NCBI GenBank assembly: GCA_036400935.1
Contig: DASWWW010000002.1
Coordinates: 63,939 to 127,938 of the forward strand
DNA length: 64,000 nt
Direction: 5' to 3'
Origin: Minisyncoccota bacterium
Lineage (GTDB): Bacteria; Patescibacteriota; Minisyncoccia; Phycocordibacterales; UBA6065
The notes beneath the pieces are model-generated. The model was not told the origin of the DNA. It saw nothing but the letters and a program-made list of their open reading frames with translations, and searched no databases. The translations under genes were made by a program, and so were the position numbers. This document shows positions 21,753-57,513 of the stretch, in pieces. Numbering within the stretch: the first letter of the stretch is position 1; each line of letters opens with the position of its first letter.

Positions 21753-22070
21753 TTACTCTTTACCCTCGTAGTCGAGTTCCCAACCGAGGAGCAGGAGGAA
21801 CTGCTCGAAGTTGTACTCGACCTTTCGCTTCTCTTCGTCATTAGAGAGCGGCCCTCTGAACCAATACACTGAAATCCACATCTTTTCCGAGGGATGGGCA
21901 CGCTCGTCGTGGCGCAGGTCATAGACGAGCCCCTTGCTCCCGTCTTTTTCTACGACCACACCTCGCTCGATGGGCTTTTGCCCCTCGAAATAGATATTGA
22001 TCGGGTTTTCCTGGGCGCACTCGGGGCGATTGGAAGTGAAACCAATTTGGCTAGTATGTATCTTTTTCAT
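21753..22070 (-). CDS. hypothetical protein (105 aa), monocistronic with its own consensus promoter and terminator
   Basis: ORF bracketed by the 22166-22194 promoter and the 21703-21732 terminator. Confidence 0.6.
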   Translation of the reverse strand: MKKIHTSQIGFTSNRPECAQENPINIYFEGQKPIERGVVVEKDGSKGLVYDLRHDERAHPSEKMWISVYWFRGPLSNDEEKRKVEYNFEQFLLLLGWELDYEGKE

Positions 22071-28939: not shown

Positions 28940-30037
28940 CTATATCATGAACTCGATTACATCCCCGTCCTTCACGACGTATTCCTTTCCTTCGGTTCGG
29001 ACGAGTCCCTTCTCGCGAGCTGCAGGGTACGATCCTGCGGCAAGAAGCTTGTCCCACTCGATAATAGAGGCGCGAACGAACTTATCCTTGAAGTCGTTAT
29101 GGATGGCGGTGCCGGCAAGGGGCGCGGTCCAGCCCTTCTTGATCGTCCATCCGCGCGTCTCTTCTACTCCGGTCGTAAAATAGGTAATGAGGCCAAGGAT
29201 CTCGTAGCTCTTCTTGATCAAGAGGTCGATGCCGTTGTCGAGGCCGCCGAGGCCCGCACGCATATCATTCTTTTCCGCCTCGGTCATGTCCTTGAGGTCG
29301 TGCTCGATGCCCGCGTCGACGATGACGTAGTCCGCGCCGCTCTTCTTGATGAAATCGATGAGCTTCGTGAATCGCTCGTCCTTCATCTCGTCGAGATTCC
29401 TGCCTCCCGACTTCTTATTGAGGACGTAGAGGATCTTCTTTGATGTCAAAAGGTGGAGATGCTTGAGGAAAGGCGCCTCGAATTCGTTCGGAACGACTGT
29501 AGACGCGAGCTGGCCGGCCGCGAGCGCAGGCTTGAGCCTTTCAAGGAGGCCCATTTCCAGGATCGCCTCCTTCTTGCCGCCCTTCACCTCCTTGCCGAGG
29601 TTGATCATGCGCTTTGACACGGTATCGAGGTCTGCCGTGACGAGCTCCATATTGATCACCTCAATGTCGAACAGAGGGTCGACCTTGTTCGCGACATGGA
29701 TGATGTCGTCATCCTCGAAGATTCGCACGACTTCGGCGATAGCGTCGGTCTCGCGGATATTAGAGAGGAACTTGTTGCCGAGGCCCTCGCCCGCTGACGC
29801 GCCCTTTACGAGCCCAGCGATATCCACGAACTCTACGGCAGCGGGAATGATCTTTTTTGTCTGCGAAAAGGCCGCTAGCCTGTCGAGGCGCTCGTCAGGA
29901 ACGGCCACGACGCCGACCGACGGGTCGATAGTAGCGAACGGATAGTTAGCCACGAGCACGCTCTTCTTGGTGAGGGCGTTAAAAAGCGTTGATTTTCCGA
30001 CGTTTGGCAGGCCTACGATTCCAATTGATAGTGACAT
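28940..30037 (-). CDS. ychF: Ribosome-binding ATPase YchF
   Basis: IGIVGLPNVGKSTLFNALT G1 motif. 365 aa. C-terminal TGS-like …VKDGDVIEFMI. Confidence 0.9.
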   Translation of the reverse strand: MSLSIGIVGLPNVGKSTLFNALTKKSVLVANYPFATIDPSVGVVAVPDERLDRLAAFSQTKKIIPAAVEFVDIAGLVKGASAGEGLGNKFLSNIRETDAIAEVVRIFEDDDIIHVANKVDPLFDIEVINMELVTADLDTVSKRMINLGKEVKGGKKEAILEMGLLERLKPALAAGQLASTVVPNEFEAPFLKHLHLLTSKKILYVLNKKSGGRNLDEMKDERFTKLIDFIKKSGADYVIVDAGIEHDLKDMTEAEKNDMRAGLGGLDNGIDLLIKKSYEILGLITYFTTGVEETRGWTIKKGWTAPLAGTAIHNDFKDKFVRASIIEWDKLLAAGSYPAAREKGLVRTEGKEYVVKDGDVIEFMI

Positions 30038-30103
30038 GGGTACCAGACTAGCATTTCGGTCTTGTTTTTAAAAGACGGCGCGATATTCTTAATGCGTAGC
30101 AGC

Positions 30104-30235
30104 ATGAGAATTTTCCGCATCTTTCGCGAACTGTTCTTTATGGCGGTCGCCGTAGCGATAATAGTCGGAACACTCTATAAATGGGTTGAATTCGACAAAC
30201 AGAACCGAACAGCAGCTGCGATCACTTCTAAGTGA
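30104..30235 (+). CDS. candidate 43-aa hydrophobic small protein
   Basis: Hand translation MRIFRIFRELFFMAVAVAIIVGTLYKWVEFDKQNRTAAAITSK*. The stop is 6 nt before a clean terminator. It is below the ORF-track cutoff. Confidence 0.3.
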   Translation: MRIFRIFRELFFMAVAVAIIVGTLYKWVEFDKQNRTAAAITSK

Positions 30236-30241
30236 CTGAAG

Positions 30242-30272
30242 GCCAAGAACCCCTTGATTCTTGGCTTTTTTA
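30242..30272 (+). terminator. Rho-independent terminator (GCCAAGAA/TTCTTGGC + T7)
   Basis: Read directly. Confidence 0.6.
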
Positions 30273-30278
30273 TAACTA

Positions 30279-30307
30279 TTGACAATATATACTATATTTG
30301 ATATAAT
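30279..30307 (+). promoter_or_regulatory. consensus sigma-70 promoter TTGACA-N17-TATAAT
   Basis: Perfect hexamers with a 17-nt spacer. The spacer shares TATACTATATTT with the promoter at 57586-57614. Confidence 0.65.
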
Positions 30308-30313
30308 AGTATA

Positions 30314-30500
30314 AGTATAGAACCTTAAAATTGTTGTTGAGAGGCGCAGATAGGAGCAGGCAAGCGTTGTCTTCCCCTATCTGCGCCTCCATGGGGCGGC
30401 GTGGACGATAGGCTTACGGCCTATCGCAACTAAACGTCAGTTAGCAGTTAGGGCGTCAAACGTGTGCCCTTCCCTCAAGGGATAAATCACGCTTCCTCAT
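30314..30500 (+). promoter_or_regulatory. ~190-nt structured 5' leader / candidate cis-regulatory RNA
   Basis: 14-bp stem GAGGCGCAGATAGG (30341-30354) pairs with CCTATCTGCGCCTC (30376-30389). 8-bp stem CGATAGGC/GCCTATCG (30406-30426). No SD in front of the ATG at 30501 (…cttcctcatATG). Confidence 0.35.
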
Positions 30501-30956
30501 ATGCAAAACAGCTACATCGCGAAGATCATCGAGCGCAACATCAAGCCTGAGACCCCTGCCCACCGCGCGCAGTACCTCAAGGCCCGGGCGCTAGTGACCC
30601 AATACCTAGAGTTGGCTACGGACATCAGACTGGGCTGGAGCGAGCTCTTCATGGCCCGTCCGCTCTCGGTACGACTGCTCGATATCTTCAAATCTGTCGG
30701 CATGACCAGCGAGTATGCCGAAGAGATCGTGGGAAACATTCACTACTGCAAGCACCTTGTCGAAGACGTCCTGAAAAGCGGATCCGTCACGGTGCACATG
30801 CAGAAGTGGGATAGTGGCGACCTCCTTGTCATGTTCACCTTCTGGGAGAAAGACAAGAAAAAGGACTCGAGCCTCCATCTCAGCCGCCAGTTCACAGTAA
30901 CCGAACAGGGCGTAGTATACCGGAGCCAGTCCAGGACCGAGTTCCCGGAAAACTAA
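30501..30956 (+). CDS. hypothetical protein (151 aa)
   Basis: ORF flanked by the promoter+leader and a 12-bp-stem terminator. Confidence 0.55.
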   Translation: MQNSYIAKIIERNIKPETPAHRAQYLKARALVTQYLELATDIRLGWSELFMARPLSVRLLDIFKSVGMTSEYAEEIVGNIHYCKHLVEDVLKSGSVTVHMQKWDSGDLLVMFTFWEKDKKKDSSLHLSRQFTVTEQGVVYRSQSRTEFPEN

Positions 30957-30970
30957 TCAACAATAACCCA

Positions 30971-30998
30971 AGCCCCTTCGACGCAAGTCGAAGGGGCT
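30971..30998. terminator. bidirectional hairpin (AGCCCCTTCGAC-gcaa-GTCGAAGGGGCT) between convergent genes
   Basis: Perfect 12-bp stem. Confidence 0.55.
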
Positions 30999-31013
30999 TA
31001 AAACTTATATTCA

Positions 31014-31595
31014 CTATTTCGCCTTTCGTCCGAGGGCAGAGACCCTCTTGTCGAACCTTGCCACTCGATTAGGAGTGATTTTCTCGACATCGCCGATGCG
31101 AGTCATACGAACTGGAGAGAATCCCGAGAACCAGAGCGTAAGCCAGCGCAGATGGGTATAGCTGACATGGAAAAAGAATTTAAGAATGAGGTGATTCGTC
31201 GCCGAGGTCGTAATGATGCGAGCTTGCTTGCCTTTCAGCCGCTTAATCCAGCCGAGGCCGTTCTTGTTCATGTTGTAAGCGAAGCCCGGGAGCCACGCGC
31301 GATCGAAAAGGCCCTTGAGGAGAGCCGGCATGTCACCCCACCATGTTGGGAAGATCAATACGAACGTATCGGCCCACTTCACGTTCTCCTGGACCGTCTT
31401 GAGATCCGGCTCGAGAGCCTGGATCGCCTTGTATCCCATGTGAAGGATCGGATCAAACGAGAGGTCGCCGATATTCATACGGCGCACCTCGTGACCGGCT
31501 GACTTTGCAGCTACCTCGTACGTATCCGCTATATGGCCCGAGAGAGTCTCCTTGTTAGGATGGCCGACGAGAATGAAAACTTTTTTCGGTGCCAT
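31014..31595 (-). CDS. NAD(P)H dehydrogenase (quinone)-like flavoprotein (flavodoxin-like fold)
   Basis: …TFVLIFPTWWGDMPALLKGLFDR… is characteristic of the NQO/flavodoxin_2 family. Confidence 0.75.
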   Translation of the reverse strand: MAPKKVFILVGHPNKETLSGHIADTYEVAAKSAGHEVRRMNIGDLSFDPILHMGYKAIQALEPDLKTVQENVKWADTFVLIFPTWWGDMPALLKGLFDRAWLPGFAYNMNKNGLGWIKRLKGKQARIITTSATNHLILKFFFHVSYTHLRWLTLWFSGFSPVRMTRIGDVEKITPNRVARFDKRVSALGRKAK

Positions 31596-49125: not shown

Positions 49126-49785
49126 CTATAATTTCCTTATCGCCTCTACCAATTCTGGAAAATGCTCTACCCTGAAATGCCCGCGATCTTTGAACGTGAC
49201 GAGCTCCGCCTCCGGCATGCCCTTCTTGTAGAGCTTTGCATGCGAGGCGGCGACCACCTTGTCGTCCTCGCTATGATAGATGGCCATCTTGCCCGACTGC
49301 GCTACGAGCTTTTTGAAGAATCCCGGCTTGTCGCTCACGGTAAAGCCCGCGTTCGCGCGCATTCCCGGATGGCCGCTTCCCTTCTTGCCCGGCTTGAAAA
49401 ATGGCGCTGCGACTAGAAACACTCCAGCGATCTTTACCTTTAGTTTGTTCTCGCTCAGGTAGCGGGCAAGGAAAATGCCGCCGAGAGAATGTCCGACAAG
49501 TACCGCGCCGCCATTCCCACCCGTCAGGAACGCTGCCGCCTTTTCAAAAACGACCTTCCACTCCTCATATTTGGCGTCCTCGGGCGAAGGCATCTCCGGC
49601 TGGAACACTTCAAAATTGCCGGCCGCCTTGCCGCCGTTCAGGTCCTCGCCCAGATTGTCCTTCCACCTCTTTGATCGGTCGCGGAAGAGATCCTCGCGTT
49701 TCATCGGCTCCTTCTTGAGGGACGCCAGATATTCCGCGCGAGTGTCGAAGAAATTTCCGCCATGTATTGCGAGCACCTGTTTCAT
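49126..49785 (-). CDS. alpha/beta-fold serine hydrolase (YdeN/RBBP9-like)
   Basis: …AVLVGHSLGGIFLARYL… nucleophile elbow GHSLG. Start overlaps the uvrB stop by 4 nt. Confidence 0.7.
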   Translation of the reverse strand: MKQVLAIHGGNFFDTRAEYLASLKKEPMKREDLFRDRSKRWKDNLGEDLNGGKAAGNFEVFQPEMPSPEDAKYEEWKVVFEKAAAFLTGGNGGAVLVGHSLGGIFLARYLSENKLKVKIAGVFLVAAPFFKPGKKGSGHPGMRANAGFTVSDKPGFFKKLVAQSGKMAIYHSEDDKVVAASHAKLYKKGMPEAELVTFKDRGHFRVEHFPELVEAIRKL

Positions 49786-51908
49786 ATTATTTCATCGCTA
49801 TTCTTATCCTTAGCCGCCTTTTCCTCCGCCTTCTTACCGGAAAGCCTCTTTTTCTTGTCTACCTTGGGCGGCTTTGGCGCTGCTGCATCGAGCTTTTCGT
49901 ACAAGGCCTGGATCTCGTCTCGCAAGAGCGCTGCCGTCTCGAAATCGAGCAACTTGACCGCATCGTTCATCTGGCGCTCCTTCTCGCGGATCAGGGCCTT
50001 TGGATCCTTGGCGAACATGGCCTCGTCGATCTTCAACTGCTCCTTTACGGCCTTCTTGTGCTCGGTCTGCATGTGGTCGGTGATATCCTTGATCGCCTTG
50101 ATGATTGTCTTTGGGGTGATGCCGTGCTTTGCATTGTACGCCTCCTGGATTTTGCGGCGGCGGTTAGTCTCCTTTACAGCGCGCTCGATCGAGCCGGTTA
50201 CCTGATCAGCATAAATAATCACGCGGCCCTCGGCATTTCGCGCGGCGCGGCCGATGATCTGAATGAGCGAGGTCTCCGATCGCAGGAATCCCTCCTTGTC
50301 CGCGTCCAAAATGGCGATCAATGCCACCTCGGGCAAGTCGAGTCCCTCTCGCAAGAGGTTGATACCGACAAGCACGTCGAATTCGCCGCGGCGGAACTTG
50401 GTCAGGATCTCGATTCGGTCGATCGTCTTGATATCGCTATGCAAGTATTCGGACTTGATCTTCCTTTCCTTGAGGTAGTCCACGAGGTCCTCGGCCATCT
50501 TTTTCGTCAGCGTCGTAAGGATGACGCGGAAGCCTGCCTTGATGGTCTTTTCTGCCTCGGCGATAGAGTCGGCGATCTGGCCGGGGAATGGATTCTTCCC
50601 TGCTTTCGTTTCAGTAACCGGCTTTATGGTGACGACCGGATCCAAGAGGCCAGTCGGTCGGATGACCTGCTCCATGATCTGGGTGCTGTTCTCCTTTTCG
50701 TACGCGCCCGGGGTCGCCGACGTATAGACGGTCTGGCCGACGCGCTGCTCAAACTCGCTGAACTGCAGCGGGCGGTTGTCGCGAGCCGACGGCAGGCGGA
50801 ATCCGTGCTCGATCAGGGTGTTCTTGCGGGACTGGTCGCCGGCATACATGCCCCCGATCTGCGGGATGGTCACGTGCGACTCGTCGATGATGGTAAGGAA
50901 GTCAGGCGTGCCGTCTGCCTTGTGCGGGAAGTATGACAAAAGGGTTTCAGGCGCCTCGCCCGGAGCCTTGCCTGCGAAATGGCGCGAATAGTTCTCGATG
51001 CCGTTGCAGTAGCCGACCTCGCGAATCATGGCGAGATCGTAGGTCGTGCGGCGCTTCAGGCGCTCCGCCTCGAGGTTCTTTCCCTCGGACTTGAGCTGCT
51101 CTAGCCGCGCGTCGAGCTCGGCCTTGATCGAGTTGAAGGCGCTCTCGATCTGAGCCTTGTCGGTGATGAAATGCTTTGCCGGAAAGAGGAAGAATACGTC
51201 GAGAGGCTTGAGGAGCGCTCGCGTCACGTGATCGATCTGGTCGATATGGCTCACGACGCCGCCGTCAAAGCTGATGCGGTAGATGACTTTTTCGTTTACG
51301 GGCATGACTTCGATCATGTTTCCGATGGCGCGCATCTGGCCCGGCTCGAGGTCGGCGTTGGTGCGCTCGAAATGGATGCCGACCATGCGGCGGATCATCT
51401 CCATGCGGTCGGCTTTCATGCCGACAGAGACTTTCATATTTACCTTCTCGTATTCTTTCGGCGAGCCGAGACCGTATATGCACGAAACTGATGCCACGAT
51501 GATGACATCCTTTCGCGTAAGCAAGGCTTGAGTCGAGGCATGGCGCAATCGCTCGATCTCCTCGTTGATCATGGCCTCCTTCTCGATATAGGTATCAGTG
51601 ACGGGCATGTACGCCTCCGGCTGGTAGTAGTCGTAGTACGAGACGAAATAATGTACGGCATTCTCTGGGAAGAATTCCGCATACTCCTGGGCGAGCTGCG
51701 CCGCGAGAGTCTTGTTATGCGCGATGACAAGCGTCGGCTTGCCCACCTGAGCGATCACGTTCGCGGCCGTAAAGGTCTTTCCCGAGCCGGTAACGCCCAA
51801 AAGCGTCTGGTGGCGAGCGCCGGACTTTATGCCCTTTACGAGGCCTTCTATGGCCTTTGGCTGGTCTCCTGCGGGCGCAAACCCGTTATGTACCTTGAAT
51901 AATGGCAT
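49782..51908 (-). CDS. uvrB: Excinuclease ABC subunit B
   Basis: …LLGVTGSGKTFTAANVIAQ… helicase motifs. C-terminal UVR domain …ALLRDEIQALYEKL…. Confidence 0.95.
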   Translation of the reverse strand: MPLFKVHNGFAPAGDQPKAIEGLVKGIKSGARHQTLLGVTGSGKTFTAANVIAQVGKPTLVIAHNKTLAAQLAQEYAEFFPENAVHYFVSYYDYYQPEAYMPVTDTYIEKEAMINEEIERLRHASTQALLTRKDVIIVASVSCIYGLGSPKEYEKVNMKVSVGMKADRMEMIRRMVGIHFERTNADLEPGQMRAIGNMIEVMPVNEKVIYRISFDGGVVSHIDQIDHVTRALLKPLDVFFLFPAKHFITDKAQIESAFNSIKAELDARLEQLKSEGKNLEAERLKRRTTYDLAMIREVGYCNGIENYSRHFAGKAPGEAPETLLSYFPHKADGTPDFLTIIDESHVTIPQIGGMYAGDQSRKNTLIEHGFRLPSARDNRPLQFSEFEQRVGQTVYTSATPGAYEKENSTQIMEQVIRPTGLLDPVVTIKPVTETKAGKNPFPGQIADSIAEAEKTIKAGFRVILTTLTKKMAEDLVDYLKERKIKSEYLHSDIKTIDRIEILTKFRRGEFDVLVGINLLREGLDLPEVALIAILDADKEGFLRSETSLIQIIGRAARNAEGRVIIYADQVTGSIERAVKETNRRRKIQEAYNAKHGITPKTIIKAIKDITDHMQTEHKKAVKEQLKIDEAMFAKDPKALIREKERQMNDAVKLLDFETAALLRDEIQALYEKLDAAAPKPPKVDKKKRLSGKKAEEKAAKDKNSDEII

Positions 51909-57150: not shown

Positions 57151-57513
57151 TCAGCACTTGAGACCTTGAGCAAAAGTGCTTACGGCTCCCTCAAGGCTAT
57201 CATCGGCCTGACTGAACCAAACCTCATCGGTGGCCTGATCAAGGCGCCAGGCGATATCGCAATCTGCCTCGGCCAAGACATGAAGCTGATTGTCCTGCGT
57301 GCAAACTCGCCCAACACTGCCCAACATGAGAAAGAGATTGTTCGGCTCAGCCGGTTCAACCGCCATCTGAGCGAATTTCCATGAAAGACCGTGGTCTTCG
57401 GGAAGGTTTAGGAGAGTTCTCAGCTTGGTATCTGCCTGGTTTACTAGAGCCAAGACCGCAGTAAGGCGATTAAGTCCCAGGTTTGTGAATTCAGTACTGA
57501 TTATAGATTTCAT
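57151..57513 (-). CDS. hypothetical protein (120 aa), monocistronic with consensus promoter and terminator
   Basis: Minus-strand promoter at 57586-57614 and terminator at 57107-57138. Confidence 0.55.
   Translation of the reverse strand: MKSIISTEFTNLGLNRLTAVLALVNQADTKLRTLLNLPEDHGLSWKFAQMAVEPAEPNNLFLMLGSVGRVCTQDNQLHVLAEADCDIAWRLDQATDEVWFSQADDSLEGAVSTFAQGLKC

Follow-up and report, generated by a model that had tools for sequence, protein, structure and literature searches.

The window analysed here, a stretch of 64,000 nt of contig DASWWW010000002.1 from a Minisyncoccota bacterium, contains next to ychF an open reading frame (ORF) of 151 codons, ORF151 (30501-30956, + strand), which is preceded by a perfect sigma-70 promoter and a strongly folding, untranslated leader of about 187 nt (30314-30500). 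We propose, at what we judge to be an even chance, that this leader is the structured 5' untranslated region (UTR) of a species-specific orphan gene, and that its roles are to stabilise the mRNA and to mark the start codon through accessibility. The element is a structured mRNA leader, and as such of a known kind, but it has no known family and no relatives. The original prediction had placed a structured RNA segment between a consensus promoter and the gene at 30501, and had named a riboswitch, an RNA thermometer or an independent small RNA (sRNA) as what it might be. The general idea stands, while none of the named classes fits.

The promoter (30279-30307, + strand) matches the consensus at 12 of 12 positions, with TTGACA at 30279-30284, a 17-nt spacer and TATAAT at 30302-30307, as had been noticed before, and it also has a TG extension. 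Only one other 12/12 match is found on either strand of the window; by our calculation about 0.02 such matches would be expected under uniform composition. Transcription would start near 30314. The spacer and discriminator (30279-30316) resemble the promoter at 57614-57586 that precedes a second orphan gene, in what we call cassette A, and the spacer motif TATACTATATTT is common to both. The leader is non-coding, with codon scores between -0.31 and -0.92 in its three frames.

Folding of 30310-30503 gives a minimum free energy (MFE) of -80.9 kcal/mol, compared with -55.1 +/- 3.9 kcal/mol for dinucleotide shuffles (z = -6.56), and none of 200 shuffles was as stable. From the predicted fold and its pairing probabilities we infer the following structure for the RNA. 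About 27 nt of AU-rich sequence at the 5' end (30314-30340) are predicted to be mostly single-stranded. They are followed by hairpin P1 (30341-30389, inverted repeat I1), which has the 14-bp perfect stem of the original prediction (30341-30354 / 30376-30389). The 21-nt loop of this stem pairs further, so that P1 has an apical extension and about 21 bp in total, with 23-nt arms that are 87 % complementary. Downstream lies a multibranch domain (30391-30500) with a predicted closing helix (30391-30403 / 30488-30500) around four hairpins, at 30406-30426, 30428-30449, 30450-30470 and 30471-30482, the first of which is the second hairpin described earlier, here with 8-9 bp. This domain by itself folds with -46.7 kcal/mol (z = -4.86). 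In the model the closing helix ends at position -1, immediately 5' of the AUG, and the predicted fold is retained when 90 nt of coding sequence are appended. The AUG is unpaired both in the MFE structure and in the ensemble, and the mean unpaired probability is 0.30 at -20..-1 and 0.67 at +1..+20. The sole upstream AUG, at 30392, sits inside the closing helix. A possible pairing between the two ends of the transcript, of the 12 nt just 5' of P1 (30330-30341) with the stop-codon region of ORF151 (30953-30964), was rejected, as 25 of 300 shuffles paired as well; no comparable pairing occurs in cassette A or in cassette B, a third such unit described below.

ORF151 has the codon usage of a native gene. 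Its in-frame codon score is 0.43 bits per codon (gene mean 0.46), the other five frames being negative or about zero, and its GC content at third codon positions (GC3) is 0.77, compared with 0.72 for genes. It is coding from its first codon, and codons 1-50 score 0.44 with a GC3 of 0.84. An in-frame stop codon at 30483-30485 makes 30501 the earliest possible start. We found in the sequence no separate promoter from which a leaderless ORF151 mRNA could be made, that is, no TAnnnT hexamer ending 4-10 nt ahead of the ATG. Since ORF151 is coding from codon 1 and no such promoter is seen, its translation would proceed from the transcript with the long leader, barring processing of that RNA. The earlier suggestion of an independent sRNA is right in that the RNA has a promoter of its own; against it, neither a terminator scan nor the sequence gives a terminator or other 3'-end signal within 30314-30500, and coding begins directly at 30501.

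Neither the protein nor the RNA has a detectable relative. In two databases, with 5.8 billion and 1.84 billion proteins, ORF151 matched only itself, and it is recorded at NCBI as 'MAG TPA: hypothetical protein [Candidatus Paceibacterota bacterium]'. One further match (P0002) proved to be a translated tandem repeat and no real relative. ORF151 has no match in Pfam, PHROGs, PADLOC or NCBIfam, nor in viral contigs, and its single-sequence AlphaFold model is too poor for a fold search (predicted local distance difference test score, pLDDT, of 52). For the comparison with relatives we used 80 ychF loci from GTDB genomes and 80 from metagenomes, with a further eight contigs from seven YchF proteins that are 87-91 % identical to that of the window. 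In 166 related loci (1.08 Mb) there was no counterpart of ORF151 by blastn, nhmmer or tblastn, and none of the RNA by blastn or nhmmer. A covariance model built from the single sequence and its predicted structure found no homologue in the window and 99 loci (675 kb), and two exact-pattern scans of viral contigs gave no match to the leader. With Rfam 15 the whole window yields only two tRNAs at gathering score. Even at E <= 10 the leader belongs to no known family, the region 30000-30700 giving only two chance matches of miRNA hairpins to P1. The models for SRP RNA, 6S RNA, RNase P and riboswitches are not matched, which upholds the earlier rejection of SRP RNA, and ARAGORN calls neither a tmRNA nor a tRNA-like gene in this region. 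The stems for which conservation in relatives had been put forward as a check are not conserved: no homologous RNA was found in the 1.08 Mb, and the closest relatives do not have the region.

The absence of a Shine-Dalgarno (SD) sequence before 30501, to which the original prediction drew attention, is real but not distinctive, since SD-like 4-mers (GGAG, GAGG, AGGA) occur at -18..-4 in none of 55 window genes, compared with 7 of 55 in a control window. Close relatives are likewise SD-poor (12 of 78 genes with such 4-mers). In many window genes TAnnnT hexamers, the form of a -10 box, accumulate with their end 6 nt before the start codon, and the genes with this arrangement include some that lie only 8 nt downstream of the preceding gene; minus-strand starts among the 55 genes are, for example, 10535, 14869, 17626, 21671, 28932, 51908 and 55745. 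The lack of SD sequences together with the TAnnnT peak suggests that the genome is SD-free and largely leaderless. The unusual feature of ORF151 is its long leader and not its missing SD sequence.

Selection of start codons independently of SD sequences, through a local absence of mRNA structure, has been documented (Scharff et al. 2011, PMC3121790). ORF151 has the features of such an initiation site, in that there is no SD sequence and the start codon lies in a structure-free window. As in the system of Scharff et al., the start codon is in an unpaired, A-rich window flanked by structure. It differs in that the flank of ORF151 is an extreme fold of 187 nt, with an outer helix that is predicted to end exactly at -1, and in that the host genome appears almost wholly leaderless.

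We therefore favour a start-defining, stabilising leader, which may have come about and may act as follows. ORF151 would have arrived within an insertion of about 1 kb at a recombination hot spot adjoining ychF. From the perfect sigma-70 promoter about 187 nt of non-coding RNA would be transcribed ahead of it, and would fold into a 21-bp hairpin and then a closed multibranch domain whose outer helix ends before the AUG, while the coding sequence stays single-stranded over its first ~20 nt, AUG included. The compact fold would protect a heavily transcribed mRNA from decay that depends on the 5' end, and would bury all upstream start-competent sites, including the AUG at 30392. The first accessible AUG, at 30501, would then be picked through the local absence of structure. 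Both functions, mRNA protection and start definition, we infer from these features. The leaders of E. coli ompA and of B. subtilis aprE and cryIIIA carry stabiliser stem-loops in the 5' UTR, and combine, as is predicted here, a strong promoter with a stable leader hairpin in highly expressed mRNAs. Bacteria of the candidate phyla radiation (CPR) keep the decay enzymes RNase J and RNase III (PMC12641178).

Several points weigh against this explanation. The start site and the structure are predictions made from sequence, and as the RNA has no homologue, no base pair is supported by covariation. Classical stabiliser hairpins, those of ompA, aprE and cryIIIA among them, are no more than a few nucleotides away from the 5' end of the transcript. 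The ORF151 fold is much larger, and P1 begins only at +28 from the putative start, after the ~27 nt that are predicted to be single-stranded. A multibranch fold of 187 nt is also more elaborate than stabilisation or start definition needs, which leaves room for a role in sensing or protein binding. Further points concern the generality of the arrangement. The three genes of the window on which the pattern of a helix ending at the AUG was tested are those in which it had first been noticed. A fourth leadered gene of the window (45552), with a weaker promoter, does not have it: its leader is hardly folded (z = -0.14) and it has a low start score, a measure defined below. On the same measure leadered genes with strong promoters in close relatives score only -0.81 to +0.15, and among the leadered genes of more distant relatives the pattern is found in one of six.

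The three genes in question belong to ORF151 and to two similar cassettes. Cassette A (57614-57105, minus strand) has the other 12/12 promoter (57614-57586), a leader of ~66 nt, an ATG at 57513, an orphan ORF of 120 codons and a terminator. Its leader is one long hairpin (z = -6.76) that starts at +4, and the codon usage of its ORF is atypical (score about zero, GC3 0.52). Cassette B (22194-21705, minus strand) has an 11/12 promoter (22194-22166), a leader of ~89 nt with a helix of ~24 bp (z = -6.04), an ATG at 22070, an orphan ORF of 105 codons and a terminator. In both the helix is predicted to end about 1 nt before the ATG, at position -2, with an open start region. The three ORFs are unrelated orphans; paralogy of ORF151 with the ORFs of A and B was considered and dropped, as they have no mutual similarity. 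We scored each start by the pairing of the last 12 leader nucleotides with upstream sequence minus the pairing of +1..+20. Among the 55 genes of the window the three cassettes take ranks 1, 2 and 3, ORF151 being first. The relative L170 has, at the same junction as ORF151, another unrelated orphan, which is preceded by a TTGACA-17-TATTAT promoter and has a long hairpin in its leader (z = -5.4). This orphan probably begins at an ATG farther downstream, where a signal peptide starts, and the helix would then not reach the start codon. The combination of a strong promoter and a very stable leader hairpin before orphan genes thus recurs. A helix ending exactly at the AUG is no general rule, given its failure in gene 45552 and in relatives.

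Nor does a long leader in this clade always fold strongly, as is seen from an orthologous 343-aa sigma-70-like gene in four relatives (L167 8912, L168 15962, L169 9972 and L170 11491). This gene has a TTGACA-17 promoter and a leader of ~70-90 nt, and its leaders are weakly structured (z = -1.8 in L170).

The locus itself has a small reach, being a structured leader from a single genome before a gene without assigned function. Its value lies in the context, namely how an SD-free, mostly leaderless CPR bacterium translates its rare long-leader mRNAs, for which the three cassettes, predicted to be strongly expressed, are concrete test cases. We also entertain, as a long shot, that those few leadered genes which are strongly expressed rely on a specialised RNA device, in the form of a compact fold with its last helix stopping right before the AUG. 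If so, the helix might present the AUG as a pseudo-5' end, or might be cut off to leave a leaderless mRNA and a stable RNA of ~190 nt, and such a device would have its first examples in the cassettes at 30279-31002, 57614-57105 and 22194-21705.

The gene order around ychF bears on the origin of the leader. In the window ychF (28940-30037) and a gene for a flavodoxin-like protein (31014-31595) are both on the minus strand, and between them lies a lineage-specific block of ~975 bp in inverted orientation (30038-31013, + strand). It contains a 43-codon ORF (ORF43), a terminator (T1), the promoter, the leader, ORF151 and a terminal hairpin (T2). The intergenic region of 463 bp had been described as downstream of ychF. 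Since ychF is read from the minus strand, the region lies instead on its upstream side, and is divergent from it. T2, a perfect 13-bp hairpin (30970-30999, inverted repeat I2), is common to the convergent ORF151 (+) and flavodoxin-like gene (-). It has a U-rich tail on the minus strand only, and was scanned as a minus-strand terminator (31002-30967).

The ancestral order is G6PD, a gene for 75 aa, the flavodoxin-like gene and ychF, all on a single strand. In L162, the closest relative (91 % YchF identity), 17 nt separate ychF from the flavodoxin-like gene, which points in the same direction, and the closest relatives, with YchF 87-91 % identical, are without the entire block. We surveyed this junction in L162-L170 and L082. 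It holds a 65-68-aa coiled-coil ORF in L164 and L165, a 70-aa membrane ORF in L166, a gene block of ~7 kb in L168, a helix-turn-helix gene in L169 and, in L170, an orphan for a secreted protein on the opposite strand, which is unrelated to the insert of the window. A relationship between ORF151 and this orphan was considered and rejected, as the two have no similarity. Because the same junction carries unrelated material in relatives, 30038-31013 appears to be a species-specific insertion at a recombination hot spot adjoining ychF. A repeat search of the block found no terminal repeats flanking the insert, and no second copy of the element is present in the window. The block is apparently not a very recent foreign arrival, because ORF151 has native codon usage.

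Other loci also have something of note upstream of ychF. About 900 nt upstream of it, on the reverse strand, L006 and L009 have a near-identical promoter and leader and the same terminator sequence, and the ORFs between these are entirely different. It looks as if a coding cassette had been swapped between conserved flanks. At a similar distance on the reverse strand (~900 nt), L010 has a long stretch without an evident ORF after promoter-like sites, with a terminator-like hairpin at its end. The stretch has no match in Rfam at gathering score, and may be a large non-coding RNA.

Processing of the transcript is the alternative that survives best, though we think it rather unlikely. An endonuclease such as RNase III would cut at the foot of the closing helix or within P1, releasing a stable functional RNA of ~190 nt and a nearly leaderless ORF151 mRNA. 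This would suit a genome that appears specialised for leaderless initiation, and also the predicted ends of the helices, which lie at -1 in ORF151 and at -2 in the other two cassettes. All three leaders hold quasi-continuous helices of at least 20 bp, the size of an RNase III substrate, and the enzyme is among those kept in CPR bacteria (PMC12641178). RNase III, however, cuts inside helices, which would leave a short leader and not a 5'-terminal AUG. Perfect promoters are typical of stable RNA genes, and this too would fit, but the RNA is not conserved in any locus searched and the pattern of a helix at the AUG is missing from the leadered genes of relatives. The early mRNAs of phage T7 and the N mRNA of phage lambda have leaders that are processed by RNase III. 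Like them, the ORF151 transcript would have a long, near-perfect helix (~21 bp) in its 5' region; unlike them, it belongs to an orphan gene on a bacterial chromosome, and its helix is a predicted one without a conserved processing motif.

The elaborate fold raises a second alternative, in which the multibranch domain would act as a sensor that controls the translation or stability of the ORF151 mRNA, be it a new riboswitch aptamer or the binding site of a regulatory protein. The domain is predicted to be a five-way junction with a closing helix of 12 bp directly next to the start codon; this and its z-score (-4.9) are in keeping with a sensor, and a GAUAGG/CCUAUC motif is present both in P1 and in the 30406-30426 hairpin, so that alternative pairings are conceivable. 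The cis-regulatory riboswitches of Rfam likewise have a multi-helix junction in the 5' UTR directly before the start codon. Riboswitches are, however, normally conserved across genera and lie ahead of metabolic or transport genes, not before an orphan of a single species. The leader has neither a family match at E <= 10 nor a homologue, either in the sequence searches of 1.08 Mb or in the covariance-model search of 675 kb. It also has no expression platform, that is, no terminator and no alternative structure in which the AUG is sequestered. This counts against the riboswitch of the original prediction, and we regard a sensor of either sort as unlikely.

The stems might also have no function at the RNA level, being DNA palindromes (protein sites or insertion scars) or structure that arose by chance in newly acquired DNA. 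In keeping with this, the block was inserted recently at a hot spot and is not conserved, and its sequence is unconstrained in any relative. Against it, three independent leaders of this genome have fold z-scores between -6 and -7 and one of a relative has -5.4, each of these structures being placed after a strong promoter and before an ORF. The native codon usage of ORF151 also indicates that the block is not very recent foreign DNA. We consider an explanation without RNA function improbable, and prefer a leader that acts as RNA to protect the mRNA and define its start.

The region upstream of the promoter bears on a fourth alternative. ORF43 is present where it had been described (30104-30235, + strand; 57 aa if the TTG at 30062 is the start), and would encode a hydrophobic peptide of 43 aa with a single hydrophobic segment of ~17-20 residues and a polar tail. 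ORF43 has a codon score of 0.17 (gene mean 0.46) and a GC3 of 0.51 (genes 0.72). It has no homologue in the 5.8 billion proteins, nor in the 166 related loci by tblastn. Upstream of it there is no clear promoter, only a weak candidate read by eye, and it overlaps the AT-rich promoter region of ychF on the opposite strand. As a coding gene ORF43 is unsupported. The intrinsic terminator T1 (30238-30272, inverted repeat I3), a hairpin with a T6 tract that works in the + direction only, follows 2-6 nt after the ORF43 stop codon. Both the fold and the inverted-repeat search confirmed it at the place where it had been described, with arms at 30239-30249 / 30258-30268, a T run at 30266-30271 and a stability of -14.6 kcal/mol (z = -4.85). 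The consensus terminator scanner missed it, probably since the stem continues into the T tract, which is our reading of the rule used by the tool. T1 suggests that some short + strand transcript ends there, and a small protein or RNA at this place is possible.

A type I toxin-antitoxin-like pair, in which ORF43 would be a small membrane toxin under the control of the downstream RNA as an sRNA, is very improbable. The single hydrophobic segment with its polar tail, the stop codon just ahead of a terminator and the neighbourhood of what looks like a strongly expressed RNA gene would all suit such a locus, and type I loci do combine a small hydrophobic ORF with an adjoining, strongly transcribed structured RNA. 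In such loci, unlike here, the two RNAs overlap in antisense and are complementary. The leader RNA runs in the same direction as ORF43 without overlap, and the sole candidate for an antisense promoter is a weak 9/12 match. The duplex of leader and ORF43 mRNA has -75.1 kcal/mol, compared with -73.9 +/- 6.3 for shuffles, an energy that 84 of the 200 shuffles equal or better; pairing of the leader in trans with the 5' end of ychF was likewise discarded for want of excess complementarity. The toxin-like or regulatory peptide that had been suggested therefore has only its hydrophobicity in its favour, being without homologue, with a weak codon signal and with no excess complementarity to the leader.

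Least credible is an RNA thermometer (of the ROSE or fourU type) that would open the start region at higher temperature: the structured leader does lie immediately upstream of the AUG, but there is no SD sequence that it could hide, at 37 C the AUG and +1..+20 are for the most part free of pairing already (0.67), and the helices are long, GC-rich and stable (14 perfect bp; -80.9 kcal/mol overall) and not weak, mismatch-rich hairpins.

Two further RNA features of the window lie away from ORF151. ARAGORN calls a tRNA-Leu(CAG) at 51021-51096 (+ strand), inside a minus-strand ORF of 708 aa (49782-51908). The call is absent from the Rfam tRNA matches at gathering score and is probably a false positive. 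The second feature, at 27519-27390 (minus strand), lies between two genes and has a 10/12 promoter (27519-27491), followed by ~100 nt with one GC-rich hairpin and a strong terminator. Its longest ORF has 12 codons, and its matches in Rfam are only sub-threshold and terminator-like. With a fold z-score of -5.75, it is a candidate small RNA.

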